Shown: in pieces, positions 6,402-64,000 of the stretch
Layout of the letters: the number at the start of each line of letters is the position of its first letter
Numbering within the stretch: position 1 is the first letter of the stretch
Origin: Takakia lepidozioides
Taxonomy: Eukaryota > Plantae > Bryophyta
Direction of reading: 5' to 3'
NCBI GenBank assembly: GCA_030704615.1
Contig: CM060733.1
Coordinates: forward strand, 12,090,001 to 12,154,000
Length of the DNA stretch: 64,000 nucleotides
Program-made: the position numbers and the translations under genes
The notes under the pieces: generated by a model
What the model was told of the DNA's origin: nothing
Seen by the model: only the letters and a program-made list of their open reading frames with translations
Databases searched by the model: none

Positions 6402-7512
6402 ACCAACTCTTTGGGTACAACAGGGCCCTAGTATTGTGGTCTTTTCTCAGTGGTAGTTAGATCCGAGCTGGTTACTTCATGAGGGTAGTGTGAAGCCAAT
6501 TGTTTGGGGGGCAAATTTTTTTATTCAATTGATCTATTCTATTTCCAGGTCTGTGGAACAAGTAGAAGGTAAGGAAGATCTGGCTAAGTGTGTATTTCCT
6601 AGGGCTAGGTATGACAAGCTCCCCCCATTAGGCATCCTAGGCCCACACTGACACACTGGTCCTGTTTGGTCGGCATTTTTGTGGTACTGTAGAGTTTAGC
6701 AATTTGTAGACAATAAACTTTTGTGTAATTCATTGAGCTACACCAATATTGCTCCTTCATGTGATATCTTTTCATCAGTTGGCCGAATGTTACGATTTAT
6801 CTGCTGGTTGGAGTATACTAGTATACCACACCAAAGAGGCCCTCTCGGAGGTTGTTGAGTATGTTAGCCTAGAATCTGATGTGTCTACATATCATGTACT
6901 TTGTCCAGCGAAAAGTCGAAGGTGTCAGCCACCTGGCAAACTCAAGCACAAGACTCAGCAAAGTACAACAGACTGAAGGTGGGGCAAGCATTAGGACTTC
7001 ATCACCATCGAGACCCTTATTCGAAAGCATCTTGACACTATTAGCTAGGGGTAGTGATCTGCTACATATATATTGTTAGGTTGCCAGATTTCTTGATTGG
7101 TTTTTTCCTTGGGGGAGGAAACAGGGAACAATAAACTTGTGAGGTGCCATATGGGCAAAGAAACCGGTCTTGGTATGGACTCCCCATATGCACTAATATG
7201 GGTTGATGCATTAGTATCAATGTTTTCTCTACTTACGTAATATATTGATATTACAAATATTATTTATCTATTGAAGCTTTTAATGGTATGTCTCGTGGCA
7301 CTACGTAGAGGGTTTTAATTTTTTTTGCAATTTGTTTTCCTTAAAAAAAGGGGAATGGTAGGAAGAGAGGCATTGAGTTACCATCCGAAGAATGGCAGCA
7401 GTTGACATTGGAGAGAGAGACAAAAAGAATGCTTCGATGTAACAAATGGCCTGAAGAGGCATGAAACAAAGCACTTTGATTGGTGCATTCTTCTTCCAGA
7501 AGAACCTCTTGA

Positions 7513-7585
7513 TCCAAACTCGCAAGTTTCTTTTGAAGGTCACTCAGGTCCTAAGTGACCTTCAAAAGAAACTTGCGAGTTTGGA
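7513..7585. repeat. Perfect 32-bp inverted repeat with a 9-nt loop
   Basis: tccaaactcgcaagtttcttttgaaggtcact (7513-7544) and agtgaccttcaaaagaaacttgcgagtttgga (7554-7585) are exact reverse complements. Confidence 0.95.
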
Positions 7586-7864
7586 CTCAGGACTCAGCTT
7601 GACTTTGGTGTAAACCCTCCTACCAGTGCGCTGGTGTGCAGCAACCGGTCTGGATAACTCAAACTTGGATTCTGGCAAAGTTGCTGTGTAGTTGGAGGCT
7701 GCCGGGAATGCACGGGAGCGCCATTCTTTGCTGCCATCTCTGCCTTAAAAATGGCCGCATCTCGCTCAGCTTGTCTTGGTTTGCTAAGCGTGAACTTCTG
7801 CTGAACGAACACTTTGGCAAACTTGGTGGCATGCATCTTGGTCAATCTTCGCGACAGACTCGAA

Positions 7865-8430
7865 TCAATTTCTGGATGCAAACGCTCTGCCACCGCATGG
7901 TTCACATTCTCTTTTAGTGCTGTTGGGAACTCCCCCTTCTTTCTTATGACTGTCCCTGCTTTGAAACATCTCACTCAGCTTGCCTTGGAAGTGGCTCACA
8001 ATTTCCCGCCGAGACGCGGCAATGGAAGAGGGCCTGTCGGCATGGTCCATCCTTTTGGGAACTCCCCATTTCTTATATGACTGTCCCTACTTTGAAACAA
8101 CAGCATTGTCCAGCTTGGCACCTTAGAGAATTATAGTAGAGTAGAAGCATATCTAGGAACGACATGACGACGAGGACAGACACATAATGATTGAGCTGAG
8201 AGGTGAAGAGAATGCTTAATCTGAATCTATAGGAGAATGTGAATCATGCAGTGGTAGAACGTTTGCACCCAGAAGTTGAGTTGAGTATGTGAAGGTGCCA
8301 AGCTGAACAATGCTGTTGTTTCAAAGCAGGGAACAAAGAGGGGGGGGGGGAGTTCCCAACGGATGCACCATGCTGATGGGCCCTCTGCCATTGCCGCGTC
8401 TCGGCAGGAAACTGTGAGCCACTTCCTGCA
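7865..8430. repeat. Rearranged, imperfect inverted and tandem duplication
   Basis: 7865-7911 is inverted at ~8232-8280. ~7925-7968 is repeated at ~8055-8100 and inverted at ~8315-8360. ~7987-8035 is inverted at ~8378-8427. Confidence 0.8.
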
Positions 8431-29600: not shown

Positions 29601-30779
29601 ATGAATTCAAGGTCAGATGGTGGGGTCAGCTGCAACATATGCCCAACACCAGATATCCTAAGTTAATCGACTCTATATCTTGGAAACAGGACCGCCCTGT
29701 CAAACAGGCTAAGTCCTGGCAGAAGAGAGTAGAAGAGATTCTCAAGGACCTGGACCTGGATCCGCAAGCCTTGACCCTGCTGGATAAATCTGACTTAGAG
29801 GCTGTAGTGTTCTCAGCCATGTCTGTTGCCATGAGATTGTCTGATGAAAATGAAGTTAGGCAGAAAACTTCCCTGAACTTGTTTCCAGTCAGTGACATGG
29901 GGGAGGACATCTTGGATGACCTCAAGGGTCTACCCACTCTCGGCACTAGACTGAAATTTAAACTCAGGGCAGGAAGCCTACCTTTGAACAGCAAACAGAA
30001 GCAGAGAGGAAAGGGAGAGTGCAATTGCCCGCTGTGTGGGCAATCTGGGGGCTAGAGCAGCGTACATAATAAATTCCATAGAGTCTGGTGGGCTGAGACA
30101 GAACAACCAACTCCAGGAGGTTAGTATCCCAGAGGGAAAGGGCAATGAGTACATCTTTCTCACCTTGATTCAAGCAGGGATAAATTAGGTCAGAGTTGGG
30201 TAAAGTCGATGACAAAACAGTACCTTGAAATGTCAACTGAAGACTGACCTCTCAAGCTCATTTGCCCGGACTACATCCTCATTCTAAATTATGTTGTGGT
30301 GGACTCTCAGCTTTTTACATGTCAAGCTTCACTCTTACCACTGGAATCCAGTCTACAACTAGACCAAAGTTCATCAAAAATCCTGCAATTCGTTCAATCC
30401 ATTCAAGTAACTCCTTGGTGTCATAATGTGCTTTACAGATAGATTGAGCGTCCTTCTTTGCCGAATCAAAATTTCTCATTATGCAGGATAACACCCACTA
30501 TGAAAAAGGGCAAGTTTTGAAAGGCCGAAGCTGCGTACAGAATTCAAATACGCTGGCCAGGGAAGATGGATTCATGCAGAAGAGAGAGCAACCAGGTGAA
30601 AAGAAAGCAGAAAGATACGAACTCGCCTGAGGTGTAGAAAGCGCAAGAGAGAGCGCAGCAATTGCCGGCGAGTGCGCCCCCTCCTCCAACAGGTGGCGCC
30701 TACGGAGGGCCCGACATGTCTGCAAAATTGCAGAACCCATTCGCTCGTCCATCGTCACTTCAGCCATCTCTCTTCTCAT
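23693..30779 (-). CDS. ATG16: Autophagy-related protein 16 (coiled coil plus WD40), multi-exon
   Basis: RALRRRHLLEEGAHSPAIAALS, ENQMLIDRWMKQKMQDAEHLNE, LARSQVDG|IVR, and WD40 repeats ending NWSRSCLS...PLATADKNGCICIWE* match plant ATG16. Start codon ambiguous (30779, 30767 or 30752). Confidence 0.93.
27450..30055 (+). mobile_element. 5'-truncated non-LTR retrotransposon (LINE) ORF2 in ATG16 intron 1, antisense to the host gene; one frameshift near 28760
   Basis: End of APE endonuclease (SDH). RT motifs KAGGPDGI, NYRGITLL, QAGFR, FLDVKKAYD, GVAQGCTLSPLLF, LMFADD, YTYLGV. C-terminal LRAG...CPLCG knuckle, truncated. Confidence 0.93.
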
Positions 30780-44589: not shown

Positions 44590-47035
44590 TACGTATGTCT
44601 GTCTCTTGCTTAAGTGCATCAAGATGGAAGGTCTAGAAGCTGGAAAGCAGGTGCACACTCACATTATCCAAAGTGGATTCACACCAAATGTTTTTCTACT
44701 CAACACCCTTGTCAACATGTATGTTAAGTGCGGGAGCATCGTGGATGCTCACCAAGTGTTCAACAAAATGCCTCAACGATCTTTGATCACTTGATAATGT
44801 TGGCAGGATTTACCAAGCATGGGTGTGGTAGGAATGCTTTGGAGACCTATGAGCAAATGTTGCGCGAAGGGGTGAAGCCTGACCGCATAACGTTGGTTTG
44901 CATTTGTAATGTGTGTGCAAGCCTGGCAGCCCTGGATGCAAAGGGAGTGTTTGACAGTATGGCTGAGCGAGATGTGGTGTCGTGGAGTGCGATGATTGCA
45001 GGAGATGCACAACAATGGGCGGGATGGAGGCTTTGGAGACCTATGAGCAATTGATGTGCCGCATAACGTTTGTTTGCATTTACAATGCGTGTGCAAGCCT
45101 GGCAGCCTTGGAAAGGTGCAAAGAGGTCCATGGTGACATCGTCAAAGCTGGATTTTTCATCTTGAACACTGCCCTGCTGGACATGTATGTGTGAGTGCAT
45201 CGAGGATGCAAAGGGAGTGTTGAACAGTATGGCTGAATGAAATGTGGTGTCGTGGAGTGCGATGATTGCAGGATATGCACAGCAGGGGCGTGGGATGGAG
45301 GCTTTGGAGACCTATGAGCAAATGATGGGGGAAGGGTTGAAGCCCGACCACATCACGTTTGTGTGCGTTTGCAATGCGTGTGCAAGCCTGGCAGCCCTGT
45401 AAAAGGGCAAAGAGGTGCATGGTTGCATCGCCAAAGCTGGAATTGTACCAGATGTGATTCTGAAGTACAATACCCTCGTGGACATGTATGCCAAATGTGG
45501 GAGCATTGAGGATGCGGAGGGAATGTTCAACAATATGGCTGAACAAGATTTGGTGTCATGGAAAGCCATGCTTGCAGGATAGGCACAGCAGGAGCGTGGG
45601 ATGGAGGACTTGGAGACCTATGAGCAAATGATGGGGGAAGGGGTGCATTTGAGGATGCAAAAGGAGTATTTGACAATGTGCCTGAAGGAAATGTGATGTC
45701 GTGGAATGCGATGATCGCATGATATGCCCACAACATGGTTGTGATAGGGAGGTCCTGCAACTATTTGAAGGAATGCAAAAGAACGGCTTGAAGCCGGACA
45801 GTGTTCCATTTATATGTGTTCTCTCTGCATGCAGCCACACTGGCCTACTGAATGAAGGAAGACGCTACTTTGATTCCTTGAGTCAAGATCATGGTGTTAC
45901 TCCGACAGTAAAGCACTTTGGTTGTATGGTGGACCTTCTTGGACGTGCGGGACAACTGGATGAGGCAGTGGATCTGATTAATAAGATGCCAATCAATCCA
46001 GATGTTGTGGTGTGAAAAGCCTTGCTTGGTGCCTGCAGAATCCATGGCAATGTGGAGATGGCTGAACGTGCGGCAACATCCACTACAACAGATCGCGGTA
46101 GTTATGACTGCCAAACCGTGGTAGTCATGGTTTTCATGATTTTGACCATGACTGCACCATGTTTTTATATGAAAGTCGTTCATACGACTGTAGTCATATG
46201 AACGACTATCTAAATAGTCGTCTGTATGACTACATGGCTCCGGAATGGGCGGAAGGCTGGTCAACGGCAATTGACCAGATTTAGCTCACTATTCATAGTC
46301 ATTTCCATGACTACAGTGTACATGGATGAGATTACATAGTCATGATGACTACTGGGGATTTTGTAATTTGGTGTGTATAATACAATTAAAACACCATATG
46401 ATCATATGAATGACTAATAGGTGTATTGGTTAACAGGTAGTGAACTATAACTCTTATAGTAAAGAGGTTGCAGGTTCAAACTCCTCTAAGTACAATCAAA
46501 TGGATAAGATGGTCCTAGGGTTAGTAGGTGAGCTAGGGATAGCACGTGGTACCCTAGATGGATTGCCACGTGGTTTTTTCATTATTATAAAATGCATTAT
46601 GCCACGTGGCACAATGCGGTGCGACGCAGCATTTGACATATGTTTTTATTTTTTTAGTTTTTTAATTTAATTTAATTTTTTAAATCAATTGCACCTCGCC
46701 ACATGGCGCAGCAGCGGCGGCTGCAGTATGGTATATATGACTGCAGTGAGAGATATCACTTGGTTCATATGACTGTAGTCATCCGGACCGTACCATCCTG
46801 TACTCATTGTATTGACTTGGTTTGCATGACTTACAGTCATAGAAGTCATATGTACCGTTTATGACTGCAGAATAATCATATATACAGTCATAAATACCGC
46901 GATCTGTTGTAGTGATCTATCCTCAAGTGGGATGAACATGATGCCGCGACTTATGTGTTGTTATGTCAAACATCTATGCTGCAGCTGGCAGGTGGGATGA
47001 TATTGCAAAAGTAAGAAGAATGATGAAGGTCAGAG
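44590..47035 (+). pseudogene. PLS-class PPR gene with E domain; frameshifted, with stops, and interrupted by a CACTA insertion
   Basis: GKQVHTHIIQSGFTPNVFLLNTLVNMYVKCGSIVDAHQVF, DVVSWSAMIAG, FICVLSACSHTGLLNEG, HFGCMVDLLGRAGQLDEA, ALLGACRIHGNVEMAERAA|...NIYAAAGRWDDIAKVRRMMK. The 5' part is repeated at ~63177-64000. Confidence 0.92.
46081..46914. mobile_element. Complete non-autonomous CACTA (En/Spm) element, 834 bp
   Basis: 30-bp TIRs CACTACAACAGATCGCGGTA(G/T)TTATGACTG (29/30). 3-bp TSD ATC at 46078-46080 and 46915-46917. Many subterminal ATGACT/AGTCAT repeats. Removing it rejoins the PPR E domain. Confidence 0.95.
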
Positions 47036-47340
47036 CACTACAATACAAGCTGGGCTTTTCGACTTTGTATTTGACTCATTTTTGAGTCGTTTGCAACATT
47101 TTTACTCCCAGCCTCCATAGTCGAACATGCGTGACAAAGGTCAAGTCGTTTCAGTCAAGCAGTCGAATCCAGATGCCAGGTTCTGACAGTGAAATGTGAC
47201 AGTAAAATCTAGGGGATGACGTGTAGGCAGCACAGTATGACGTGGATGCGACGTGGCTGTCATGGTTTTAGTCATGGTTATCTAGATTACCTACTTCTAG
47301 TTAACTACGACATTTTAGATATTTATATTTATATTTTGTG
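47036..47340. mobile_element. Probable left end of a second CACTA element, interrupted by the Gypsy insertion
   Basis: PPR homology stops at CACTACAA (47036), followed by AGTCG/CGACT subterminal-type repeats. Right TIR not in the window. Confidence 0.55.
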
Positions 47341-48987
47341 TGTTGGGACTTCATTTGGTCTCACATGTCAAGTGAGGTGTCGAGCCTCACTTGAGACATG
47401 GAGATAGGTTTTCCCCTTGTGAGTGTTGAGGAGGCTCATCTTCTTGTAGTTGAGCCTCCATGAGCTTCTCTCACCTCCATAGCTCTAGGTATTGAGAGGG
47501 AGTGTGTTGAGGGCTTTGTAGGGTGGATTCCTTTAGCAAAGGTGCCATTGGCTTGACTTAGTTTATGTGATAGAGTGGATTTCACTTGGAATGACTAGGG
47601 CTTGTTCTTCATGTGATTGCTTCATGCTTTGAGAGCTTTCATTGTCTTCTACTTCTCTCATTTCTCATCTCTTATCACTATAAGAAGATCACTTTATGCT
47701 TGTGAGTGCGGAGTGTAAGGATTAGTTTTGCACTTGTATTTTAAAGAGGTTGAGAGCTAGGAGAATTTAGCTCTTGTATCACAAGGCTTGCAAGGGGTTG
47801 CAAGGAAAGGTGCTTGAGTATTACATGCACCAAGGAGTTGGAGAGCTTGAGAAGAAAGCTCTTGAGTAACAAGATTTTGCAAGGATTGTAAGGAGGAAGT
47901 CTTGTGTGTGTGGAAGCATGGATTCTAGGGTTTGAGAATCCTTTGTATGCATTATGGAATCGATGGTGTGCGCCATGGCTTGTGGAGAGTGACTAAAGGC
48001 TTGTTAGTGCTCATTTCACTATCAAGCTAGGGTTAAGCAAGTTCAAAGTGTGGATGTTGTGGAAGAGAAGCCAAGGAGCTATATATGTTTGGGCTTGAAG
48101 ACAACAAGGGCAAGCACTTGGAGAGCACTAAGAAGCTCAAGAGGTTTTGAAAGGGAGCATGTGAAGAAATCTTCCAATCATGGTGGTGTGGAGCCAAGCT
48201 TAGGGTGCCATTGGAAGGGCTTGGAGAACACGTGGTGGGAAATCCTTGAAAGGAAATCATCATTCAATGTATGCATAGCTTCACCCTAACTATGTAATGT
48301 GACAAGAGGGGGAGGCAATACTTGGCTATTCATGCTCTTGGTAGTGCGAGCTTTGTGGTGGATAGTTGACCAAGCAAGTGGTGCATGTGTGGAGCATGCT
48401 CGCTTGAGTTTGTAAGTTCAAGTTTGAGAAGGGGAGCTCTTGAACTAGCAAGAGGTGAAGGCCTTTGAGATCCATTTGTGTGTGAAGTGGAGAGGTGTTG
48501 ATTCATGTTATGATGAAGGAGAGCAACACATAGGCCAAGAGGTCATGAAACATGCATTCAAATGACCACGGGGAGCACATGGATGATGGATTGGTGCAAG
48601 ACCCCAAATGAGGCATATGGCGTGAGAGTGGGATCCAAGGCGGATTGCTTGGGAGCATTATTGTAAGTGACAAGCATTGCTCCTACACATTGAGATAATT
48701 TGTGTTGATTTGGAGCAATTGTCAAGTGATGAGGAGACAAATGCATGATTGCTCGGCATTGGAGATATGGTAGTTTGCAATCAAATCCCAAGGACTAGAA
48801 GGGGGATTGATTTGGTGGACAATGACTTGCAAGTTGAGTTGGACCACTCTTGGTTGCACATTGGGGTGGAAGAGAGTAAGAAGATGTCTCTTATGACCAC
48901 CTAGAGACCATATTTTTGCTTGAGTAGAAGCATAGAAGTCAAGGACTTGCATTCTAGCTCTTCATTACAAACCCTAGTAGTGTATGC

Positions 48988-49350
48988 TCAGACTATACCT
49001 CTGTTAGTATACCAAACAGGAGCTTGTCCCTTTGACTATACCTCTGTTGAGGTATCACCATATGTGAACCCTAATGTGAGACTATACCTCTGTTAGTATA
49101 CCAAACAGGAGCTTGTCCATTTTACTATACCTCTATTGAGGTATCACCATATGTGAACCCTAATCAGCTCAGACTATACCTCTGTTAGTATACCAAACAG
49201 GAGCTTGTCCCTTTTACTATACCTCTGTTGAGGTATCACCATATGTGGACCCTAATCAGCTCAGACTATACCTCTGTAAAGGTATCATCAACATAAGGGA
49301 CCCTAGCAACCTCAAGTATATCTCTGTTAAGGTATCAACAGTGTAAGGAC
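48988..49350 (+). repeat. Tandem repeat of ~90-bp units (paired ACTATACCTCTGTT...GGTATCA subunits) inside the putative LTR
   Basis: Units begin near 48990, 49078, 49171 and 49263. A GGAGGATCTTTGGGGTCCTTGGA repeat follows at ~49418-49472. Confidence 0.9.
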
Positions 49351-50098
49351 TTAGTGAAATTTAAGGGCCTTTAGAGGATTGTTTGGAAGATATTTGAGGG
49401 CCCTTGGAAGAGTATTTGGAGGATCTTTGGGGTCCTTGGAGGAGTGTTTGGAGGATCTTTGGGGTCCTTGGAGGACCCTTCGAGGAGCTTTGGTGGACAA
49501 TGTTGAAGAGCTCTTGAAGGATTGATTGAGGGATATTGAAGGATACTTGCCACGGCCATACAAGCGAGTGGATAGAGACAGGAGGGAGAGTAGTGGGATG
49601 AGAGCATTCTGGGGTTAGGAATTGCTTTAGTTTCTCTTCTCCATAGTCTTTCACCCTCTCTGTAGGCCAAAACCTTTCCGTAGGTGGAGGCAAGAGTCAG
49701 TCCGGGTTTGGGCTGGGGTGTCCTTGCAGGAGCGACACTGTGGAGTGTTTTTGGTGTGGGGGAGTTGTTGTCTTGATTTTCTTGTGTTTGGATCCCCTCC
49801 ACACCTGCATGCTTGAGTGTGCACCATGTTAGCTTTGTGTGGGCGCTTGTTTTCATAGGAGGTTGGTCCGGATTTGATCACCGGCCAATCCTAGAGTATG
49901 CTGTCGGTGGTGAGGCTGGAGTGATGACCAGCAAGACCACCAGTGTTTCTTCTATGGTGAGGTTGGGTTGATGACCAGCAGACCATAGGAGTGCTTGCGG
50001 TGGATGCAGGTGCAGGTACAGGTCTACGTTAGAAACCTATTATTCCTGCTTGAACCAGTAGCCGCAACAGGTTCTTTACCCGGTTACCTTGTACAAAG

Positions 50099-50117
50099 TG
50101 GGGATTAGAGACAGGTT
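50099..50117 (+). promoter_or_regulatory. Degenerate primer-binding site resembling tRNA-iMet
   Basis: TGGGGATTAGAGACAGGTT versus the canonical TGGTATCAGAGCCAGGTT; lies 3 nt after a CA and ~30 nt before the gag frame. Confidence 0.55.
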
Positions 50118-50146
50118 GACAACCGGTTGGGTTGTGAGTTTTCATC

Positions 50147-51700
50147 ACGGAGGTGCCACCAGCTGCTGAGGGGAGTGCCAATACAAGCACCAGCGATACT
50201 AGTGGGTACACAAGACAAGGTGTGCGGTTTAGGCCACTTTCACCTTCAGTGTCTTCTGAGGAAGGTTCGGACTCGGAGTAAGGAGGATTCTCGCCGAGGG
50301 TGCAAGTCATTTCCATGCCATTGTTGTGGGACACGATGGAGGAGATGTATGGAGCTACCAAGGGGCCACGTAGGTATTCTGGAGCTATGGGCACCATCGA
50401 GCTTGATGACTTTATACAAGAGTTTGACAGTTGGTGTGATTTGCAGCAAATGCGCAATCCACAACTGTTTACGCCCTTTATGGCGTGGAAGGGGCTATTC
50501 CAGCACCTTGAGGGGCCGCCCATGGATGATTACCATGAATTTAGGCGGGGACATGCGGTGGAGATTGAGGAGTGGCGAGAGTATTGGTCACCTAACTATG
50601 TCTCAATCACTAGAGGCACAAGGGCAGCGGTGACACCAGCAGCTACACAAACATCTCCAACTACAAGCACTAGTAGTGGAACAAGTAGTGCCGACACTTC
50701 TGAAGGTGGTACCAGTTCAAAAGGTGCTACTACTCCTCCTGCCACAATTACAACACATGTGCCTAGATTCAACCCGGTGGTGGAGTTCTTCTAGGAGTTG
50801 CGGAGGAACTACCAAGGTGTACGGACAAAGAAGCTGCGAAGTTTGCAAGACTTCCAGCGCAAATCCAATGAGAGCTTGCGAGAGGCCTACACTCGTATGA
50901 GGCGCTTGATAAGTGTGACCCAACGGGTTACTGAAGCTCAGGCAGTCCAGTTCTGGTATGGAATTTTGGACAAGGAGCTCAAGAGAAGGGTGCGGGATGC
51001 AACCCTGTTACAAGCGGCCCAACCCACATTAGCGGATGTGTTTCTGCTGGCTGAGCGGATTGAGCTCAACATGGTGGAGGAGCGAGTTGTTACCATTGAA
51101 TTTGGCAAGGACATGTCTGCACGAGGTGCAGCTGCCAGCCAACAGGTACAAGAGACTGCCCAACAGCGTGGTCAGGGGGGCAAGGTTGCCCAACCCAAGT
51201 TCCATGGAGCTTACAGGGGACCTCAGGTGCAGAGGCCCGTGGCATCTTTTGCATGCCAACAGCAACCAGGGGTGTTGGACATGTGGAGGACCCCATGTCA
51301 AGAGAGATTGCCCAGAGAGTGGCAGAAGGCCGGCACAAGCACAGCCTGCACAGTTGCAGTGTGGGCATTGTGGCAAGTATGGTCATGGAGATGCCCAGTG
51401 TTATGACTTGCACCCTAAGTTGCGCCCAGGCCAGTTCCAAGGGAACAATGGTGGCCGGGGGCAAGGTGGACCAGCCCAGAGAGGACGAGGTGGTCGGGCA
51501 CGAGGTGCAGGCCAAGGGCAAGCTCAACATGGCCAAGGACGCGGAGGTTAGGGTGTTGACCAAGACATGGCCAACCGGCTTCAACAGCTAGAGCAGAGGC
51601 TCGCTGCCATGGCTACAACTCAGGTGGTACCGGCTCCCAGGCGGGATGGTCCACCTCCTGCTCTTGAGAGAGGAGATATGGAGGCATGGGATTCATGTGC
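50147..51700 (+). pseudogene. gag with two CCHC zinc knuckles; stops and a frameshift
   Basis: LQDFQRKSNESLREAYTRMRRL (major-homology-like region), CWTCGGPHVKRDC, CGHCGKYGHGDAQC, RG-rich tail. Confidence 0.85.
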
Positions 51701-52259
51701 GGAGTAGCACTACCACTAGTGCAGGTGGAGTCTGCTGCAGCCGTGACTTGAGGAGCAGTACGAGTTCCTGAGCCACGAAGTGCAGAGGTGGAATTGGATC
51801 CATAGCGTAGGGAGGCAAGCCGTCAGGCGAGGCTTCCTCAGTCATTCACATTGGCGGAGACAGTGTCGACGCCATCCATGGCACCTAGTTCTCGCCCGAC
51901 TGTTACCAAGGCGGAGGTTACTATGCCATTGGGGAGAGCTACACGTGCAGCACTGACACCTGCTACCAAGGCTAGTGCAGCCGGTGTGTTATTGGGGGCA
52001 GCCACCTCTGTGTGTCAAGCCCCACTGTTCTCGGCAACCATGATTGCGACACCGGGGGTAAGACCAGCTGCAGTGTTCAGACTAGCAGCAACACTCTGCG
52101 AGAGTGGGGAGGTCACTTCATCTTCTGCGGAGTTACTGGAAGGTGTAGTGGCAGAGGGATCCTCGGATTTGAGGGTCAAGACTGCCACGGCTGCGCCATG
52201 GCAAGCTGCAATTGCCAGGTTGATGGAGCTGCCAGCTAGGCCAGCCTTTGAGCGCGCCA

Positions 52260-52680
52260 TGGTGACACCTGGAGTTGTCTTGTTAGACAACCAAGGAGGC
52301 ATTTTCACTTTGAGTGGACTGGCAGGCAAGAAGTACCGGCCACTGCGGGTCTTGTTAGACTCAGGAGCTCAGCCACTGATGTTGGGCAGAACTGCTATTG
52401 CAGGTTTGGGCCTCATGGAGGCGGATATGGAGCCTTGTCATTTCCAGATACAAACATCTCTGGGAGGATCAGAGCAGGCTCGGGGCATGACACGGTGTGA
52501 GTTGGCCATTGGACTATAACCAGATCATCCTGTAGATGGCTCAGTGATGCGAGCCAAGGCCATTGTGATAGACGCGGTCTCTTACGATGTCCTTGTTGGT
52601 GGGGCAGTGTTATATCCCATGGGCTTCACCCTGGACTTTTGGGAGGAGTCAGCATCCTACAGGCCTGGATGGCAGTCAGG
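52260..52680 (+). pseudogene. Retroviral-type aspartic protease
   Basis: VLLDSGAQ catalytic motif and YDVLVG C-terminal motif; in-frame stop at 52517-52519. Confidence 0.85.
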
Positions 52681-53071
52681 GGATGGTCGTCGTGCACAGC
52701 TCCCTGTGACATTCATTGGGGGTATTGCGGCTGCCCAGCGGGGCAAGATGCCAACACTAGCCGCCTTTACAGCTGCAGTTAGTTGGCCTGGAGAGTTGTT
52801 GGAAGGCAATGCCCATGCAGAGGATGTGCCACCTCCAGCAGAGCAGGATGACATGCATGGTACGACGGAGTTGTCTGCCATGGTTGCTCACACTCCATTA
52901 TGGGGTACGAGCAAGGATTTGCAGCAGGCTGCTGATAGACGGGTACAACAAGCCTAGGTAGAGGCCTTCGTACCGTCAGGAGAAGAGGAGAGTGCGGTAA
53001 TTGCACCAGGACCACCTCAGTTGTCGCCATTGGACACCACACCTCTTGTGTGGCAGTGCCCGGATGAAGGC

Positions 53072-54015
53072 ATATGCCTTCTGGACTTGTTTGGCGGGAT
53101 CAGCACTGGATTGGCTGCAGTACTGCAGCCAGGTGTACGAGTTCGACGTTACCTATATGTGGAGAGGGATGAGACTGCATGACACATCTCACTGCGCCAT
53201 GTTGCTCAGTTGGTACAGCAGTACCCTGATTTGTTGCCAGTGTCTGCAGTTCGTGGATACCAACAAGCCTTGCCAGCAGACATTTCGTTGCTGGGGGCGC
53301 AGGATTTGGAGTGGGTTGGCTCCATTGATCTGGTAGTGGCAGGTTGGCCCTGCCAAGGGCATTCATCAGCCGGGCATGGCAATGGATTGCGAGACTCGAG
53401 GACGGGTCTGTTTTGGGAGATGGTGCGGATTTTGCGCCACTTGCAGCTTCATCAAGCTGTATCTCCAGCATACATCTTGGAGAATGTGCCACTGATGGGT
53501 GATTCTCGGGCCAGGGTGATGGCCAGTGTGCATCAAGTCCGGTCGTGGCTTGGGTCAGCAGTGTTGCTGGATGCAGTTGCATTGGGGTCATGGGCTCATC
53601 GTCCACGGCTATGGTGGACTAACTTGATGCCACCCGCACTGCTCAAGCGTGCATTTGATGGGGTGCAGCGGCCAGCACACCTCACAGTGGATAGCATTTT
53701 GGACACAGGGAGGCAGTCTCAACGTGTGAGACACGATGACCGTTCGCCTTTGGCAGTGGTCAACAGGGTGGGTCAACCACGAGCAGCATTACCTACACTG
53801 CTCAGCTTCCCAGGATCCCATGCTTTTCGGGATAGTGGACCTGGCCTCTTGTGGGATAGCCAGTTGCAACAATTAGTGGAGCCCAATGCTGACGAGCGTG
53901 AACGGGCGATGGGTTTTACCACAGGTACCATGGCGGTGCCATCTCTTTCTGAGGCATCACGTCGTCAGGTGTTGGGGCAAGCAATGGATCTCAATTGCTT
54001 GACCTGGATTATCAG
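53072..54015 (+). pseudogene. C5 DNA cytosine methyltransferase domain (DNMT3-like, unpermuted) within the Gypsy pol frame; one in-frame stop at 53180-53182
   Basis: Motifs in order: I LLDLFGGIS, II YVE, III ADI, IV LVVAGWPCQG (PC at 53348-53353), VI YILENV (ENV 53480-53488), VIII RPRLWWTN, IX ERERAMGF, X RRQVLGQAMD. Same reading frame as PR and RT. Confidence 0.93.
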
Positions 54016-54448
54016 CTTGGCTATGGCTGAGCAGCGCAGAGTACGGAGTACACTTCCCTTCATGGTCTCCCTACCTACCGAGACGGTACAGGCAGCGAGT
54101 GGGGGCAAGCAGGTGAGGACCACGAGGTGCAGGCCGCATCCATGGCACACGTGGGAGGTGCTTGAGGTTCAGAAGGAGTTGGCAGCCAAGGCGGCGGTGA
54201 TGGATCAGGTTGGGGATTTTTCTCGGATTGAGGAGGTCCTCAAGGATGGGATGATGGGGCAGGATGAGACATTGTCACTGACAGAGGAGGCAGTGGTCAC
54301 TACTCAAGAGGTTGCAGCATAGCAACCACGGGACGCGTCTTCTACCTCTAAGCTTGCTGGACTCAAGGTTGCAGTCACGGAGGACAACTGGGAGCCTGAT
54401 GTTGGACCTATAGTCACCGGAAGAGAGAGACGACGTATACGGCGGTTC

Positions 54449-55820
54449 TTGAGGGCTTACAGGAACTGCTTTGCCCTCAGTTTGAAGGACTTAGGAGCAC
54501 TGAAGGGTCAAGAGATTCGCATTGAATTGGCTACTGACACGCCAATCTTTCGGAGACCCTATAGATACAGTGACATGGAGAGGTCCTTGATTCAGATGAG
54601 AACTCAGGACCTCTGGGAGGCTGGTTTGGTGGAGCTATCTGGGGGAGAGTATGCTTCAGCCACAGTGATGCCAGCCAAGAAGGATGTCTTTGGCAATTGG
54701 ACGGAGAGACGTATGTGCGGTGATTACCGGCCTGTAAATCGTCAGACCAAGTCCGATAGGTATGCCATGCCAACACCAGAGGAGATCTTTGATGCCATTG
54801 GGCATGCCAAGGTCTTTAGCACGTTGGATTTACGATCCGGATATCACCAGTTGCCGATCAAGGAGGCGGATAAGCAAAAGACGGCATTCTGGGGGATCAA
54901 TGAGCACGGGAAGGATTGCCTATACCAGTGGCGGATCTTACCATTTGGGCTTAAGAACGCTCCGGCAGAGTTTCAGAGAGTCATGGACAGGATTCTAGCA
55001 GGGGTGGAGTTTGCTCGGTGCTACATAGATGACATCATCATCTTTAGTGCTACGGTGGAAGAGCATGAGAGACACCTTCAGGGGGTATTTGAGCGCTTGA
55101 GGGCGCACGGATTGAAGTTACATCCGGGAAAGTGCAAGTTTTTCCACAACCAGATTGAGTATCTGGGTCACATGATATATCCTGGAGGATTGGGGGTACA
55201 GCAGACTAAGGTAGAGTCCATGGCACAGGTTCCACGCCCACGAATGTGAGCCGAGCTCGAACTTTCATTTGGTTAGCAAACTATTATAGACGGTTTGTTA
55301 AGGGATTTAGTGCCATTGCAAAGGCTCTAACCAAGCTGACCAAGGTGGACCAGGAGTGGCAGTGGGAAGATGAGCAAGAACAAGCTTTTCAAGAGCTCAA
55401 GGCGAGGTTGACCTCGGCGCCCATCTTGAGACGACCTATCAGGGGGCGTCCTTTTCAGCTGCATACAGATTGGAGCATGCTGGGGCTTGGAGCGGTGCTC
55501 ACACAGGTGGATGATGAGGGAAGAGAGTTCGTAGTGGCTTATGCTAGCCGCTCGAACAACGTTGCAGAGTCTAAGTATAGCTCATATGAAGGAGAATGCT
55601 TAGCTGCAGTGTAGGCCATGACACACTTCAGGTGCTATCTATACGGCAATCTCTTCACCCTTGTCACGGATCACCAACCACTCAAGTGGTTGATGGAGTC
55701 AGACAAGCTTACGGGGAAGCTTGCACGGTGGGTACTCATCCTTCAAGAGTATGACTTTCAGGTGGTGCATCGACCGGGTTTGGTCAATCGCAATGCAGAT
55801 GGGTTGAGTCGCAATCCATG
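54449..55820 (+). pseudogene. Reverse transcriptase and RNase H; frameshift near 55243, stop at 55612-55614
   Basis: RMCGDYRPVN, FSTLDLRSGYHQ, LPFGLKNAPAEFQR, YIDDII, YLGH; FQLHTDWS, AYASR, EGECLA, TDHQPL, NADGLSR. Confidence 0.95.
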
Positions 55821-56189
55821 CACGAGCCAGCAGGACGACACTTGAGCTCGGTGGCATGGTGAGACGGACGAGGAGATGGTGCCCGGATGGCATGCATCTG
55901 CATTTCTGTGTATCTTGGCAGCGGAAGGCCAGGTTGGACTTGCAACAGGGATGACTATAGATCAAGTGTCTGAGGACCCTGAGGCCAGCAATGAGCAAGG
56001 TGGCGCCAAAGATATACATGAGGATTCAGTTGTGTTGGACTACCTCCGCACTGGAGATACTGCAGCCGTTGTGACTGCCAAGGAGAGGGATCGGATCCTA
56101 CAACGAGCCAAGAGGTTCAAGTGGGAGGGGACACACCTGCTCCGAGTGTGGGAGGATGGTCGAGTGAGGATTGTGCCTCACCCAACACA

Positions 56190-56859
56190 GCGGGCACGGT
56201 TAGTGCGGCATGCCCATGAGGAGTTGGAGCATTTTGGGGTGCGACGCACTCATAGTCTACTGCAGGGGCAGTATTGGTGGCGTGGTATGCACACAGAGGT
56301 GCAACAATTTGTGGCTAGGTGCATGGTGTTTGACAGGATGCGTGCTTCATTCAACGCCCCTACTCCACAATTGCACCCTCTTCTGATCATGGGATTGGGC
56401 TACAGGTGGAGTCTTGACTTCGCAGGGCCGTTGCCACTGACCATGCGCCACAACAAGTACGTGTTGGTGATGGTGGAGCACTTCTCCAAGTGGATTGAAT
56501 TGGTTCCATTGCCTGATAAGGCTGGTGAGGGAGCTGCGTATGCATTCTTGGATTGTGTGCTTAGCCGATTCGGTGCTCCAGCTGAGGTACTCACGGACCA
56601 AGGGAGAGCGTTCTTGGGGGAGTTTCAGGCTTTGTGTGACAAGGCCTTGATAGACCACCGCACCACTTCTCGGGATCATCCTGAGGCCGATGGCTTGACA
56701 GAGAGAGTTGTTCAGACAGTAAAGAGGGGTTTGCGCAAGTATGGCTTGCAGAAGGGACACCTAGGAGATTGGGACCTTCAGTTACCCTGGTTAGCCATGG
56801 GCTACAGGTTCAGCAAGCAAGCATCACTTGCCTCCTTCTCACCATACTTTCTTCTCTTT
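56190..56859 (+). pseudogene. Integrase (HHCC plus DDE core), C-terminally truncated
   Basis: HAHEELEHFG...CMVF (last Cys mutated), WSLDFAGP, VLTDQG, ADGLTERVVQTVK, SPYFLLFG, then an abrupt switch to the duplicated sequence. Confidence 0.93.
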
Positions 56860-59800
56860 GGAGGTAAAATGGATTAAAACTCCACATAGAGACCAACAAA
56901 TGGGAACTCGAGTTTGTTGTTTCAAATTGTGCTTGACAAGATTTTGCAACTAAAGCTAGTGTAACTTTGAAAGAAAGACAAAATGGTACTAAATGCCATC
57001 AATCTATAGCCACATTTGGAGTACAATACGACAACTATATTATGGTAGGCACTTTTTGACTTTATCTACTAGTATGTCCCAAAAGCCGTCATACATTTCT
57101 TTCTAGTCGTGTCAATCTTGATGGTATACATCAATCTATGGCCAAACATAGAACCCTATCTATATTGTATTATCTACAATGTATACACACACATATATAT
57201 ATTCACAAATCTCTACCATACTGAGGGCCCGAGGGCTAGTTGATATTATTTTTTCTACTTTTTGTTTGTTGTGTCTCAAATGCTATGATAATTATTTTTC
57301 ATCATCTTGAACCTTACTAGCTGTGATATAGAATTTCATGACCTAGACATCAAAGAGTAATATACAACCCTATAATCCAACCACTTAAAATTTCCACCTG
57401 CAGGTACACGGTAAGGATGTGAGAAGAGTATATACTTCTTTGGGACAAGACCAACAACATTACCATGTCTTCAATGATAATGAACCAGCATCATGCATCT
57501 ACGATACTTTCCAGAAGGAAGTGTCAGTGTATTGCAAACTTTTGGACAAGGAAGCTATGGAGTATGTGGGGACCTTCATTCGTACAATCAATACAATTTC
57601 AAATGTAATCCCAAGACGCAATTCCAACAAGATCAGCACCACACACTAGACTCTTTAGCTTTGACGAACAAGCATGCTGACAAGATTTACAAATGGGAGA
57701 ATCTGATAATTGGGTTCTCCAAAAGAAACTTTTATAAGGCCCAACATATTTGGCTAATCAATCAAAGCTAGTCTACTGAAGGGTACCTATATAATTGTGA
57801 TGAATCATAATGAATGTTTGCATAACATAAGTCTTTCCTTAGAAAAATTTAGCCCAACATTTTCGAAGTAGGCTTCAAAGTCCCTTAATGGAAAAGATTC
57901 AGCTGCAAGGTCAGTGAGAAGGGGATCAGCTAGAGATGGAGACAAATCGAGCACATTCTTTGACAACATTGGCAATGTCTCCTCCAACATGCTGTATACA
58001 CTCTACATAAATCAATACCAAAGTTATAAAGTAGTTTGCTAGCTCTCGCGGTACATTCGGATCATATTCGTCACTTCGTCTGAGCACAAATGAACATTAA
58101 GCTCCTGCTTGTAGAACCGCATTTACAAGCATATAACTCATGGTATTGTCATGAGGAACTAATTTCAATGCTTCCTATACAATCGTCTTCATAATTTCAG
58201 CCCTATGCATTCTGCTCATACTTGCCTACGAAGCATTGTCATCCCGGATCAACCTCTATGGCACTGGAATATGAGATTATTTTTTCCTCTATGTACTATT
58301 CTGGGGCTTTTAGTATAGGGTAAGCCTCCGAGTGGACGGGATTACCGAAATGAGCCCAACCACGAGGCGGTAGCCGAGTGGCAGGGCGAGTGTAGGTAAT
58401 CCCCTCCACTCTGAGGTTTACCATGCGTGAAGAACGCACAGGGAACGTTGTAATGCACTGGTTAGCCTGGCGGGTAGAATCTTATAGGATTCTACATTCC
58501 TAGTGACATTCCTGCACACGGGTACGAACAAGAACAATTTTATATAATTGGAAAAAGTACGCAGAAGTCATTGTCAAATTACCTGAGATCTGTACCAATT
58601 GAAATAATCATATGTACATTCACCTAGGAATATCCAGACTGATTGATACAGAAGCGTGTCCCAGACCCTTAAACAGCGGAATGCCCACCCACATGACATC
58701 GTAAGTTAACCTGTATCCCAACCCCGGTAGAGTCCTGAGACAAATGCATTTACGTATCTCAAAGAATTGGCCCGTCGCTTTCATAAAGCGACCCTCTTGG
58801 GTGTCACTTTTCCCGATCCGACCTCTGGGAGTCCTAAAACCCTTCGATGTCCCACGACTCCATCAAGGAGTGGAGTGATTTTGTTAGGCTCGGGGTGGGG
58901 CATGAATGCTATGGGTCACCCTTTCTCCAGTGCCGCAACTACCACCATCCAGTCACATGCCCTGGCGGTTTACAGGAAATTGTGTGAGACAAACTTCACT
59001 GAACAATTCAAGCATGTGGTGGTGTTGGGGGGCTTCAACCTCCGGATCACAAGCTCAGCCGCCAAAGAGAAGAAATTCACTCTTTCATCTGATATGCAAA
59101 GATCTTCAAGGAATAATTGAGAAATTAATTGCGGATTGCAAACTGATGTACAATTTTGTTCCTAGATTTTTTAGTCACTGGTGGTTGATGTGGAGAAGGT
59201 TATTGTGCTTTTGTGTATGTCTTTCAACAAGGCTTGTGGATTCTTGCAGCAACCATTCATACTCTGCATGAAATGTGGTATAAAAGCTCACCTACGACAA
59301 CCCAAACCAATGACAAAATGAGTATATAAAAATTGAATGTATGAAATATTCATACAAGAAATTATAAAAGACCGAATGAAAAATATGGAAGTTATATGAT
59401 GTGGACATCATTTTAAGAGAGACCATTTGTCACAGTAAGCTCAAAACGTTATTCTACTTGACCTTGGATATCAATAATAATCACAACAATTGTGGCTATT
59501 GCGAACTTTTGATGGAAGCGCTTAAAAAAGGTAGAGATAGAATTATTGGTCAGAAATTCAAGACATGATGAGTTGCCAAGGGCCGTGCAATGGATTCCAC
59601 AAGTGTGATGGTTGTTATTTTCAGACATAATTCTAGATCTTTTTTTTCGAACTTCATTTTGAGGCATATACTGAAATTTACCAAGTGCACATATTAACCA
59701 CCCCTAACAACTTGTGTGCATGGGTCTAGACCAAAGAACCAAGATGATAATGCTAACAGTGGTGTATCTCTCTTTGTTAGTCATAATACAATGCAAATAT

Positions 59801-62800
59801 ATATTGTCAGAATCAAACACAAAAGGTTTCGTAAAGTTTGTATAGTAGCTTAAGACCATCCTCTCAAACAGAGCATCTTTAACAGTCAAATCAAGATCAT
59901 GATCTACTATCAGTAGCGGACTTGACAATGGAACAAAAACATAGAGATGGTAGAGAAAATGAAGAGACATAAATAAAAATAGCATACAATGAAATATGAG
60001 AGTGGATTTATACTAACGGAATGATGTTGAATTCATGTGCACCTTGCAGATGAGAAGATTTGATTGTGTTGAAGTGCGCCGAAGTTGCATGATAGACCTA
60101 TGGTATGGAAATCAAAGTAATTATGAGCTGTTCGTAGATAAAACGTCATTCTAACAATGACGGTTACGAGCAGTTTGTTATACATGTAAAACATGCATCA
60201 CTTTGAATCTACAACAATATTGCCAAAACACAAGCAAGTAAAGAAGAGTACAACAAACTCATGTTGGTCGTGATCCACTTGAATGTCGAAGGCTCTGTGG
60301 GCTACTTTTGCATGGCGCAACATTCAAGTGCAAGATAATATTGCCATGATTGAAGACCCTTCTTGAGAGAATGGCCATAGCCATATTATGGAACAATGCA
60401 AAGGGAACACCAGAGTGATTCACGACCTTATATGTACATAGTGATTCTATCAACAACACAAATTCAAAGGTAGGACAATCAACCTCACGGATCCAAAGAG
60501 ATTGTGATAAAAACTACCGTCCTTTGACCACATTTTCTCCTTCGACTTCAACATGAAGCATAATATCTATTTTATAATGCAACAAAAGAAACCTTGAACC
60601 CTAATTGGATGTAAAACTTAAGCAATGAATGAAAAGTTTAAATAATGAATGAAAAAGAAGTTTGGGATTTGAACCCACTGTTGGTATTGGAAACCAGAAT
60701 TGCAATTATAATATAGTGTATCTATCATGTATTGACTAGGGCTACGCGTTGCTCCGCTAGTGACGACTTCTGAGAACAATAATCAAGTTTTATAGAAATA
60801 TAATGTAGGAGTATAATCTCACGGTATTTTTGTCGGATTTAGGCAGCATCGGAAGTAGTTATAGTTATGGTTATAGTCTTTTAGGTGAAGTGACATCATA
60901 AGTTATGTTTGCTTCTGCAAAAGTTGTTTTCCCTTCCTTCCTTCTTATATCGTTCGATAACTCTTCATATTCTAAAATTTAATTAAAAATACAACAGATA
61001 TATAGGGAAAAACATTTCAAATAAACTTTTAAATTCAAAAAATTATTAACTTTAAAATCAGAACATATTCAATTAATGGTAACATTTTTATTATAGAGAA
61101 TAATATTTTAATATTTGACGCCTCCCGAAGGAAGCGTAAATTATGGTGTCTCTTCACCCCCAAAGGGTTACTGCCTTCCGTTAGGAAGGTGGACACCTTT
61201 GTGACACCAAGGGTGGATTGAACCCACAACCACTTCCGAGGTGGTATGTGCCCATCACCACTAGGCTACAACTTGATTGTCTATTATAGAGAACAAAAAG
61301 TCCGATTGGAGATGATGTAACTAAGTGCCATTTCATTTTATTCTAGCGACGACCGAAGGTCGGAAGCTAGTTTATCGTAGAGCAGGAATAGGGTGCCAAA
61401 GTGCCACGTTTTTATCGCCAAGTCATCATCGTCATGTCATCTGCGTCAAATTGTTTACATCTGCCCGGATTGCCCGCCCAAAAACGCCAATAGAATTCGT
61501 CGCGCCAACTGTTTCGAAACTGCCCAAACTGCCATTTTCTTGAACCGCAGGAGGGGGTTCACAGGCCAATAGCAATTCGCAGATGGAGACGTTCACGGAT
61601 TCTGAGTACACAGCAGGAGCTCTCACAATGGTGGGACAACCGCAATCGCAAGCTGTGGCTTTTCTTAATGTACGATGTGAAGAAGTTTGTCCATCTTGAA
61701 AATGGGTACCATGATTTGTTATTCTTCCTGATGTTTACAAGGTTCTTGGGAGATTCAGCTTGGTGTTAGCAGGCCGTGTTTCAATCTCTGCCTGCTCAGC
61801 TGTACCGTGGTGGTTCTCACAGACCAATCCGACATTACCTGACTATAGACACAAACAGCACACACAAGAGGTCCTTTTAGGTTGATGGTCGGCCAAATCC
61901 TCCATGGGTCATGACACAAGGTCAAGGACAATGTGGTGAGGGCACCTTCTTCTTCGATCTATTTGAGCCTGTTTTGCCCTCTCATCAGACTCGGCCTTGA
62001 CAAGTTACTGTCGTTGTGGCAGCAGGAAAGTATCCAAAAACAGATAACAGAGATGAGGAGAATCTTGGGAATGAACACTTTTCCGACCCCAGTCAATGGT
62101 GGGACAATGGACACAAAAAGGTGAATCTCTGTTGGACTACAGAGAGAAGCAGATGCAATTCAGAATTGGGGTGTCAGGTGCTAGAAGTCTCCATGGGTCA
62201 TGAAACAAGGTAAGAACAATGTGGTGAGGGCACCTTCTTCTTCGACCTCTTTCAGCCTGTTTTGTCCTCTCATCAGATTCGACCCTGAGATGTGGGTCCA
62301 GATTCATCCAAGAGGGTCGGATTTCAAGCTCCAGATCACCTATGATTCCATATGGAAGGATAGCTACAAGAAACCTGCATGGGTAGATGGTCAACTGGAA
62401 GCCGCAACAACAGGAGCAGCCGTACAATTAATAATGTCAGGCATTGCTAATGAAGGCACCTTCTTCAAAACATTTCACCCTGTTTTTCCCTCTTCTCACA
62501 ATCGGCCCTAAATTTTCATGTTGAATTCTGCAAGGTAGCTGGTTGAGTGAACCTTTGATAGTTTGGAGTGACTTTGACATGATACTACTGCCAATATAAC
62601 AACAGTGAAGTATCCATAAATAGGTAACAGAGACGAGGAGAGGTTGTGAAATGAATACTTTTCTGACCCCAGTCAATGGTGGGACAATGGAGACAAAAGG
62701 TGAATGCCTATTGGATTACAGAGAGTAGCAGATGCAATTGAGGATATGAACTAGAGCGACATGTTGAGTTGGGTGTTTCCTAGAACAAATCTAGGCTGTC

Positions 62801-64000
62801 ATTGTCAGCTGATAGCAACAAGGCAGGGATATATGTATGATTTGTGCAGAGGCATGGATAGCTGAAGGAGCATGGATAGTGTGTGGGTGGACAGATTCAT
62901 CCAAGAGGGCCGACTTCAAGCTCCAGATGACCTATGATTCCATGTGTATCAAATAGCTACAATAAACCTGCATGGGTAGATGGTCAACTAAAGGCAACAG
63001 CTGCAGTGGCGCAGTTGATAGAATCAGGCACCTCAACCATGACCACAACTTCTGGAAGAGGATCAAGAGAGGGAGTCCACAATGCCTTTTCTGGCACTTC
63101 TGGGCATGTGAAGATCTTTTGTGCGGCAGTCAGCCTGACAGACTCCAAACCAATGGGGCATTTCAGCAGATTCAGATACGTATGTCTGTCTCTTGCTTAA
63201 GTGCATCAAGATGGAAGGTCTAGAAGCTGGAAAGCAGGTGCACACTCACATTATCCAAAGTGGATTCACACCAAATGTTTTTCTACTCAACACCCTTGTC
63301 AACATGTATGTTAAGTGCGGGAGCATCGTGGATGCTCACCAAGTGTTCAACAAAATGCCTCAACGATCTTTGATCACTTGATAATGTTGGCAGGATTTAC
63401 CAAGCATGGGTGTGGTAGGAATGCTTTGGAGACCTATGAGCAAATGTTGCGCGAAGGGGTGAAGCCTGACCGCATAACGTTGGTTTGCATTTGTAATGTG
63501 TGTGCAAGCCTGGCAGCCCTGGATGCAAAGGGAGTGTTTGACAGTATGGCTGAGCGAGATGTGGTGTCGTGGAGTGCGATGATTGCAGGAGATGCACAAC
63601 AATGGGCGGGATGGAGGCTTTGGAGACCTATGAGCAATTGATGTGCCGCATAACGTTTGTTTGCATTTACAATGCGTGTGCAAGCCTGGCAGCCTTGGAA
63701 AGGTGCAAAGAGGTCCATGGTGACATCGTCAAAGCTGGATTTTTCATCTTGAACACTGCCCTGCTGGACATGTATGTGTGAGTGCATCGAGGATGCAAAG
63801 GGAGTGTTGAACAGTATGGCTGAATGAAATGTGGTGTCGTGGAGTGCGATGATTGCAGGATATGCACAGCAGGGGCGTGGGATGGAGGCTTTGGAGACCT
63901 ATGAGCAAATGATGGGGGAAGGTTGAAGCCCGACCACATCACGTTTGTGTGCGTTTGCAATGCGTGTGCAAGCCTGGCAGCCCTGTAAAAGGGCAAAGAG
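56860..64000 (+). repeat. Copy 2 of the duplication (=38273 to ~45413), running past the window end
   Basis: Near-identical; by eye 7 substitutions and one 1-bp indel over ~7.1 kb. Confidence 0.97.

Follow-up and report, generated by a model that had tools for sequence, protein, structure and literature searches.

A 64,000-nucleotide stretch of the Takakia lepidozioides genome (contig CM060733.1, positions 12,090,001 to 12,154,000; hereafter the window, with positions counted from its first letter) contains a decayed Ty3/Gypsy retrotransposon that is truncated at its 3' end and belongs to a high-copy family. The element encodes a DNMT3-like C5 cytosine methyltransferase (DNMT), and this domain is an integral, conserved part of the family. 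The architecture is almost certainly a first open reading frame (ORF1) of gag, protease (PR) and DNMT, followed by a second (ORF2) of reverse transcriptase (RT), RNase H (RH), integrase (IN) and a PHD finger. The two frames are separated by a conserved stop codon. Taken as a whole, the explanation offered here, a DNMT3-carrying Gypsy element with a leaky stop and a methyltransferase that travels in the particle, is probably correct.

Identity of the methyltransferase domain

One frame of the window (51806-55249) spans the protease, the C5 methyltransferase and RT, and is interrupted by stops at 52517, 52955, 53180 and 54320. The methyltransferase occupies 316 codons (53072-54019) and contains only the stop at 53180. 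Its motifs are found in canonical order: DLFGG (53084), YVERD (53156), GWPCQ (53342), ENV (53480), RPRLWWTN (53600), ERERAMGF (53894) and LGQAMD (53972), and PCQ, ENV and RxR are all present. Pfam identifies the domain as DNA_methylase (PF00145, E 1e-12). Translation and Pfam therefore confirm a preliminary description of this DNA, made from the letters alone, which had placed a C5 methyltransferase in frame between the protease and RT. Motif X is C-terminal, and the domain is therefore unpermuted.

The same description had called the enzyme DNMT3-like, which also holds. The best sequence matches among solved structures are DNMT3A/B/C (E 1.6e-9), followed by M.HhaI (2e-4) and DRM2 (0.02). In the DNMT3A alignment, RPRLWWTN, ERAMGF and LGQAMD fall opposite their DNMT3A counterparts. 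The stop-free domain of a relative, L006, which is 67% identical to the window domain, was modelled with AlphaFold, with a predicted local distance difference test score (pLDDT) of 94.6. This model matches DNMT3B/DNMT3A with Z 29.7 (root-mean-square deviation 2.5 over 273 aligned residues), the bacterial CpG enzyme 4dkj with Z 25.7 and M.HhaI with Z 24.7. By sequence and by the predicted fold of L006, the domain is closest to DNMT3 among the solved C5 methyltransferases. ENV is kept in all 29 full-length domains. Moreover, PCQ, ENV, RxR and the S-adenosylmethionine-binding FGG/FAG loop are kept across families that are 50% identical.

Abundance, relatives and selection

Protein searches returned 66 longer and 195 similar-length relatives. 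Named sources are Calypogeia, Marchantia, Riccia, Sphagnum, Closterium, Chromochloris and Monoraphidium, and the liverwort and Sphagnum proteins are up to 73% identical (Marchantia up to 73%). These liverwort and Sphagnum relatives extend a charophyte element type into land plants, as had been anticipated. Among the matches listed (all 66 longer and 120 of the 195 similar-length relatives), none carries the name of a fern, lycophyte, hornwort or seed plant. HMMER found 208 proteins at E 1e-30 or better among cluster representatives. A single-protein metagenome query produced 41 pattern matches, none of which was confirmed, while an alignment query succeeded and recovered 63 loci from metagenomes, plus one (L094) filed in a bacterial genome bin. 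Viral contigs contributed 30 loci with only short, weak matches to phage-type methyltransferases.

Dozens of independent loci repeat the order gag-PR-DNMT-RT-RH-INT, as do liverwort and moss records of chromosome scale. Among 442 proteins, 66 have PR-DNMT without RT, 39 have RT-RH-DNMT-INT, and 8 have PR, DNMT and RT in one chain. Relatives that join DNMT with RT in a single ORF include P0079, P0260 and the Closterium protein P0055.

Sequencing depth suggests that the family is very abundant and that the DNMT domain is present in most of its copies. The summed contig depth of run X1 over 49740-56845 is 0.46-1.36 million, compared with 89 for a unique flank contig, though summed contig depth is not a copy number. 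The DNMT bins reach 0.71-1.24 million, as high as gag (0.46-0.91 million) and RT, RNase H and integrase (about 1.0-1.4 million). A 5009-nt contig of run X6 is collinear with 52761-56861, from DNMT to integrase, with 111 differences.

The DNMT domain is under purifying selection. Its ratio of nonsynonymous to synonymous substitution rates (dN/dS) is 0.08-0.21 in 8 pairs, 7 of them between families, where dS is mostly near saturation and the ratios are rough. The value is 0.12 in L027-L028, an unsaturated, stop-free pair. The protease is close to DNMT (0.09-0.31), and DNMT lies above RT (0.03-0.06). In decayed copies of one family, DNMT dN/dS rises to 0.37-0.68, as for RT. DNMT and RT also co-descend. 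Their distance matrices across 67 elements correlate (Mantel rho 0.72, 0/999 permutations), and the eight elements with the conserved stop form one clade in both the DNMT and RT trees (0.95 and 0.88). Three points limit this evidence. The saturation of dS is one; the loci and proteins were fished with DNMT motifs and cannot reveal DNMT-less sisters; and the DNMT and RT trees share only 23 of 63 splits.

Several relatives depart from this layout. L053 (92-3901) has the order RT-RH-DNMT-INT and, together with proteins P0039-P0059, belongs to a large related group in which DNMT sits between RNase H and integrase and which has chlorophyte members (Chromochloris and Monoraphidium). No description of this group was met in the literature. 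In L010, from 10647, an internal deletion joins the end of DNMT to the integrase C-terminus and PHD finger. In L031 (3360-4635), an internal deletion joins gag to DNMT, with loss of the protease. Element sequences are also filed in bacterial genome bins, namely L094 (Synechococcales) and protein P0293 (Obscuribacterales). Both are most likely eukaryotic contamination, and a bacterial origin of L094 was rejected.

A conserved stop codon between DNMT and RT

The stops in the window copy had all been taken as damage. This is correct for 52517, 52955 and 53180, which lie in the PR-DNMT-RT frame. The TAG at 54320 is a family-wide design feature, and reading every stop as damage was rejected, as this one is invariant in four runs and recurs across families. 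The stop (54320-54328, TAG CAA CCA) is in frame with RT and ends ORF1. The methyltransferase had also been described as part of the polyprotein. It does lie in the gag-PR frame, but it ends ORF1, and RT follows only after the conserved UAG.

No variant was found at 54320-54328 in the four runs (54255-54400 examined, threshold 3%), and the depth of run X1 peaks at these positions. Many gag-PR-DNMT proteins end 77-186 residues past motif X, and the Marchantia copies, seen as protein records, end at a matching distance. Of the 45 loci (the window included) that contain the end of DNMT as well as the start of RT, 38 have a TAR-CAR-YY motif (27 TAG, 11 TAA) 19-26 codons ahead of RT and in its frame. 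Most of these loci belong to one family, and families were therefore defined at 80% DNMT identity. On this basis, TAG-CAR-YY is present in 7 of the 9 families with data, with the full CARYYA in six and CAR-YYC in the seventh. As background, CARYY follows 27 of 2322 other TAGs (1.2%) and CARYYA follows 2 of 2322. The linker varies from 306 to 435 nt, and the columns flanking the stop are not conserved.

The undamaged relative L027 illustrates the design. Its ORF1 (gag-PR-DNMT) is 1369 codons from stop to stop and its ORF2 (RT-RH-IN-PHD) is 1047 codons, and the two are joined solely by TAG CAG TTA. L094 has the same build. The TAG CAA CCA of the window fits UAG-CAR-YYA, the type I readthrough signal of tobacco mosaic virus (TMV) (PMC3542737). 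Its reported readthrough is about 10% in vivo and, in transgenic Arabidopsis, 6-10% (PMC2754532). From these sequence features, RT is very likely reached by ribosomal readthrough of the conserved UAG. Some observations count against readthrough. Seven of the 45 loci lack the in-frame motif, being decayed copies or L043 (TAG TAG CCA). The largest family reads CAA CCC and has an ATG at codon 3, where reinitiation would be possible. RNA structure 3' of the stop is inconsistent (z +1.7 in the window and -0.8 to -2.9 in five relatives).

Proposed mechanism and alternatives

Most ribosomes would stop at the UAG and make Gag-PR-DNMT as the main product, and readthrough would supply smaller amounts of RT, RNase H and integrase. 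The amount of methyltransferase would then roughly equal that of Gag and exceed that of RT and integrase several-fold to tenfold. The usual need for Gag excess is about 20:1 (PMC2194720); because readthrough would keep RT and integrase low, this need would be met. The methyltransferase would enter the virus-like particle on Gag, and would probably be freed by the protease. Within the particle it could methylate newly made cDNA, with CG as the likeliest context by analogy with SymbioDIRS-Dnmt3, a Symbiodinium element. A new copy would arrive already marked like host chromatin. Methylation of cDNA in the particle has about an even chance of being the main job of the enzyme. Two results are neutral or speak against this role. 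The observed/expected CpG ratio is 0.49 in the element and 0.47 in the host background, which is no footprint of self-methylation. Moreover, the Klebsormidium domain gave no methylation in yeast, a result its authors regarded as inconclusive (PMC5890265).

The main rival keeps the same architecture but has the methyltransferase act chiefly in the nucleus, on integrated copies or at the insertion site, through self-silencing or chromatin shaping and possibly with the PHD finger. It is a serious though somewhat unlikely alternative. Intact relatives do end in a PHD finger, and insertion-site effects and slowed transposition are listed as possibilities in PMC5890265; abundant enzyme would be compatible with action at either place. 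Its fusion to Gag and protease, however, would point to packaging, and in the related group with DNMT between RNase H and integrase the enzyme is again among particle proteins.

A second alternative accepts the conserved stop but has RT made by another route, with the TAG as a 3' splice site or with reinitiation at a downstream AUG. This is quite unlikely. TAG does fit the YAG of a splice acceptor, an ATG follows the stop at codon 3 in the largest family and at codon 14 in L036, and Tca2 bypasses its gag stop non-canonically (PMC2194720). The conservation, however, lies 3' of the stop (CAR-YY) and not 5' of it. The T content of the 60 nt upstream, 0.18-0.33, is not high, and this speaks against a splice acceptor. 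The site is also crossed without a joint by a 2173-nt contig of run X9, though that X9 is RNA is a guess. Three families lack a Met between the stop and codon 85-117; in the window the first one is codon 85, and in L027 and L094 it is codon 117. These positions lie within RT-homologous sequence, which argues against reinitiation.

A non-catalytic role, in which the domain would be retained for DNA or RNA binding, is very unlikely: that no activity was seen for the Klebsormidium domain in yeast (PMC5890265) would fit such a role, but the catalytic motifs and the FGG/FAG loop are conserved across families 50% identical. It is hardly credible that a one-off gene capture or nested insertion, contamination or a chimeric assembly accounts for the methyltransferase, for although a near-identical 7-kb duplication adjoins the element, so that local assembly may be imperfect, and one relative (L094) sits in a bacterial genome bin, the same order recurs in dozens of independent loci and also in liverwort and moss records at chromosome scale, depth is even across domains, selection is purifying, and the phage matches are short and weak. 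For the family, a nested or one-off gene is refuted by the recurring order, the depth and the selection. The preliminary description had named a one-off insertion, neutral evolution and a chimeric or contaminant contig as findings that would overturn it, and none of the three was found.

Layout of the window copy

All features of the element are on the forward strand. The element had been thought to start at 50147, and its start is corrected here to 47258, the first position of repeat A. This 5' terminal repeat (TG...CA, 420 bp, 47258-47677) begins TGTCATG as in relatives and ends TTATCA. Run X6 has loose ends at 47256/47257 and 47677 that resemble the end and start of the repeat B of relatives. 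Blastn gave no alignment between the moss-type repeat A and the window, and the window repeat was placed through its ends and the loose read ends. A candidate self-priming site (47678-47702) is complementary to a stretch within repeat A. The predicted duplex has -18.4 kcal/mol in the window (7 of 200 shuffles equally good), -30.3 in L037 (0 of 200) and -13.4 in L042 (73 of 200), and this evidence is suggestive only. A long 5' leader follows (47703-50335), with short tandem repeats at 48990-49277 and 49356-49493. The depth of run X1 is lower and uneven over 47870-49365 and climbs from about 49400, and part of the leader may therefore vary among copies.

The gag region (50336-51620) has a zinc-knuckle-like motif, stops at 50792 and 51549, and frame changes near 51255 and 51680. 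It matches Marchantia P0003 by tblastn at 61% and 43% in two frames, and the Pfam match to Retrotrans_gag is weak (E 0.006, below the cut-off). The aspartic protease (52271-52690) has LDSGA at 52355 and a stop at 52517. Its Asp_protease_2 match is below the cut-off in the window (E 0.037) and reaches 2e-4 in the intact relative L027. Beyond DNMT and the conserved stop lie RT (54395-55240; YIDD at 55022, RVT_1 E 2.6e-33, frame change near 55240), RNase H (55252-55836; RT_RNaseH_2 E 2.3e-26, stop 55612) and a truncated integrase with H2C2 and core regions (56182-56859; Integrase_H2C2 and rve above the Pfam cut-offs). The GAG-PR-RT-RH-INT domain order of Ty3/Gypsy elements is thus present.

The end of the element at 56859 stands as a boundary, but it is a truncation within the integrase and not a natural end, and sister copies run on into more integrase. 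In intact relatives the integrase continues to a PHD finger (PHD E 2.6e-10 in L027). The window copy is dead, with stops, three frame changes and the truncation, in agreement with the preliminary description.

Terminal repeats and integration

The 3' B-A-B repeats are absent from the window copy, of which only the 5' end survives. Two relatives are complete: L037 (9127 bp, target-site duplication AAGG) and L042 (9210 bp, CATA). Both run from a 4-bp duplication through the TG-A repeat, the coding region, a polypurine tract (AGGGGGG), repeat B, a 2-bp spacer, repeat A and B-CA to the second duplication. This A-coding-B-A-B layout is complete in L037 and L042, and its 3' part is found in L019 and L057. 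For the window's own family it is known only from repeat A and the loose ends of run X6. L016, L019, L027, L036, L057, L094 and L053 likewise contain the junction motif GACA-(G/A)(C/T)-TGTCA, and L053, despite its other domain order, shares the form GACA-GC-TGTCA. The full terminal repeat may be B+A, with the integrase cutting a circular intermediate inside it.

A wider scenario is more tentative and is given somewhat less than an even chance. An ancient green-plant Gypsy superfamily with chlorophyte-type, charophyte and bryophyte branches would have retained a DNMT3-like enzyme while shifting its place in the polyprotein. The land-plant branch would have put the enzyme on Gag before a leaky stop of viral type, making it a bulk particle methyltransferase that methylates its own cDNA before integration. 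Self-priming and CA-GC-TG cutting inside the terminal repeat would explain the A-coding-B-A-B layout.

Surroundings of the element

The neighbours are intron-containing, land-plant-type genes for a dicarboxylate translocator-type transporter, a phosphoglycerate mutase-type enzyme, a serine carboxypeptidase, and WD40 and PPR proteins. The element is cut off by sequence outside it (56860-64000, forward strand), a second copy of the host segment 38273-45414 (99.89% over 7142 bp). The two copies of this 7.1-kb or longer duplication are 18,587 bp apart, and one end lies in the integrase. The two junctions have no shared sequence upstream, and the duplication is either a recent tandem duplication or an assembly artefact.

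Other mobile sequences are present in the window. A LINE-type reverse transcriptase occupies two overlapping frames (27409-30055). An 834-bp non-autonomous CACTA-type element (46081-46914) lies in a decayed PPR gene. It has 30-bp terminal inverted repeats starting with CACTA and a 3-bp ATC duplication, and is left out of contigs of X1 and X9. At 7507-7592 and 7854-8426 lie a nearly perfect palindrome of 36 bp and a set of nested inverted repeats, possibly small DNA transposons.

Novelty and significance

The concept of a DNMT-carrying retrotransposon is already published, from algae in 2018 (PMC5890265). Land-plant copies or the conserved stop were not found in the literature; subscription papers were largely outside the search, and an earlier mention is possible. 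A land-plant retrotransposon DNMT is absent from the available portions of PMC12344493, PMC6317226, PMC12885004, PMC11982613, PMC9940879, PMC9477723, PMC6453930, PMC10952607 and PMC8566409. No literature mention was found for six Marchantia gene ids of element proteins. Two later papers, in their available text, say 'streptophytes' without naming land plants.

Since 2018 it has been an open question why retrotransposons retain an enzyme whose normal effect is to silence them. The sole Gypsy example so far is from an alga, for which the yeast assay failed. Close relatives in Marchantia polymorpha, a genetic model, and the undamaged elements L027 and L094 therefore make the question testable. 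The conserved stop predicts dose, with the methyltransferase as abundant as Gag, and RT and integrase near one tenth of that. Bryophyte methylomes could be affected, and DNMT gene counts inflated, by a high-copy element that brings a de novo methyltransferase of its own. Element proteins are present among the gene models of Marchantia, in several cases, and in one bacterial genome bin.

Comparison with known systems

The nearest published system is KnitGypsy-Dnmt3, a Gypsy element with a DNMT3 domain in Klebsormidium nitens (PMC5890265). As described there, it shares with the present family the Gypsy domains, an intronless, unpermuted DNMT3-like domain with key residues, and purifying selection on DNMT (Ka/Ks < 0.2 there; 0.08-0.21 here). 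It also shares the A-coding-B-A-B layout, called DIRS-like there and found here in L037 and L042. A K. nitens RT (KFL_013780010) is 44% identical and belongs to the same broad RT group. It groups loosely with the elements that have DNMT before RT (FastTree support 0.74), with one arachnid Gypsy RT as the sole outgroup. No K. nitens DNMT sequence was identified among the matches. The two differ in that the DNMT of KnitGypsy-Dnmt3 lies in the RT and RNase H ORF, whereas here the conserved UAG-CAR-YY stop stands between them, and in that the hosts here include liverworts and mosses. Marchantia has no mention in the searched text and supplementary files of PMC5890265. K. nitens is reported to have 33 DNA_methylase genes in all (PMC5890265), and the family here appears far more abundant than the K. 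nitens elements. Because its DNMT shares no open frame with RT, the window element is a variant of KnitGypsy-Dnmt3 and not a member.

SymbioDIRS-Dnmt3 and SymbioLINE-Dnmt of Symbiodinium are also retrotransposons that carry a C5 methyltransferase, and SymbioDIRS-Dnmt3 methylates CG de novo in yeast (PMC5890265). Unlike the present family, they have DIRS or LINE backbones, with a tyrosine recombinase or endonuclease and not a DDE integrase. The EpiLTRs of Cymbomonas and Euglena (bioRxiv 10.64898/2026.05.21.726589) are likewise long terminal repeat elements with a cytosine methyltransferase. Their domain, however, is DNMT4-related and is accompanied by DAM and a chromodomain, and their authors regard them as distinct from streptophyte Gypsy-DNMT3.

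The host plant DNMT3 enzymes (PpDNMT3a/b; PMC6453930) have a DNMT3-type catalytic domain with the canonical motif order, as here. They are described with DUF3444, whereas Pfam reports none for the element ORF1. DRM differs further, being permuted and scoring far lower (E 0.02). The in-frame UAG and CAR-YYA before the polymerase is shared with the replicase of TMV (PMC3542737) and with murine leukemia virus, Tca2 and SIRE1 (PMC2194720). In the last three, as described, the stop is located at gag/pol or pol/env, whereas here it comes after the protease and an accessory enzyme.

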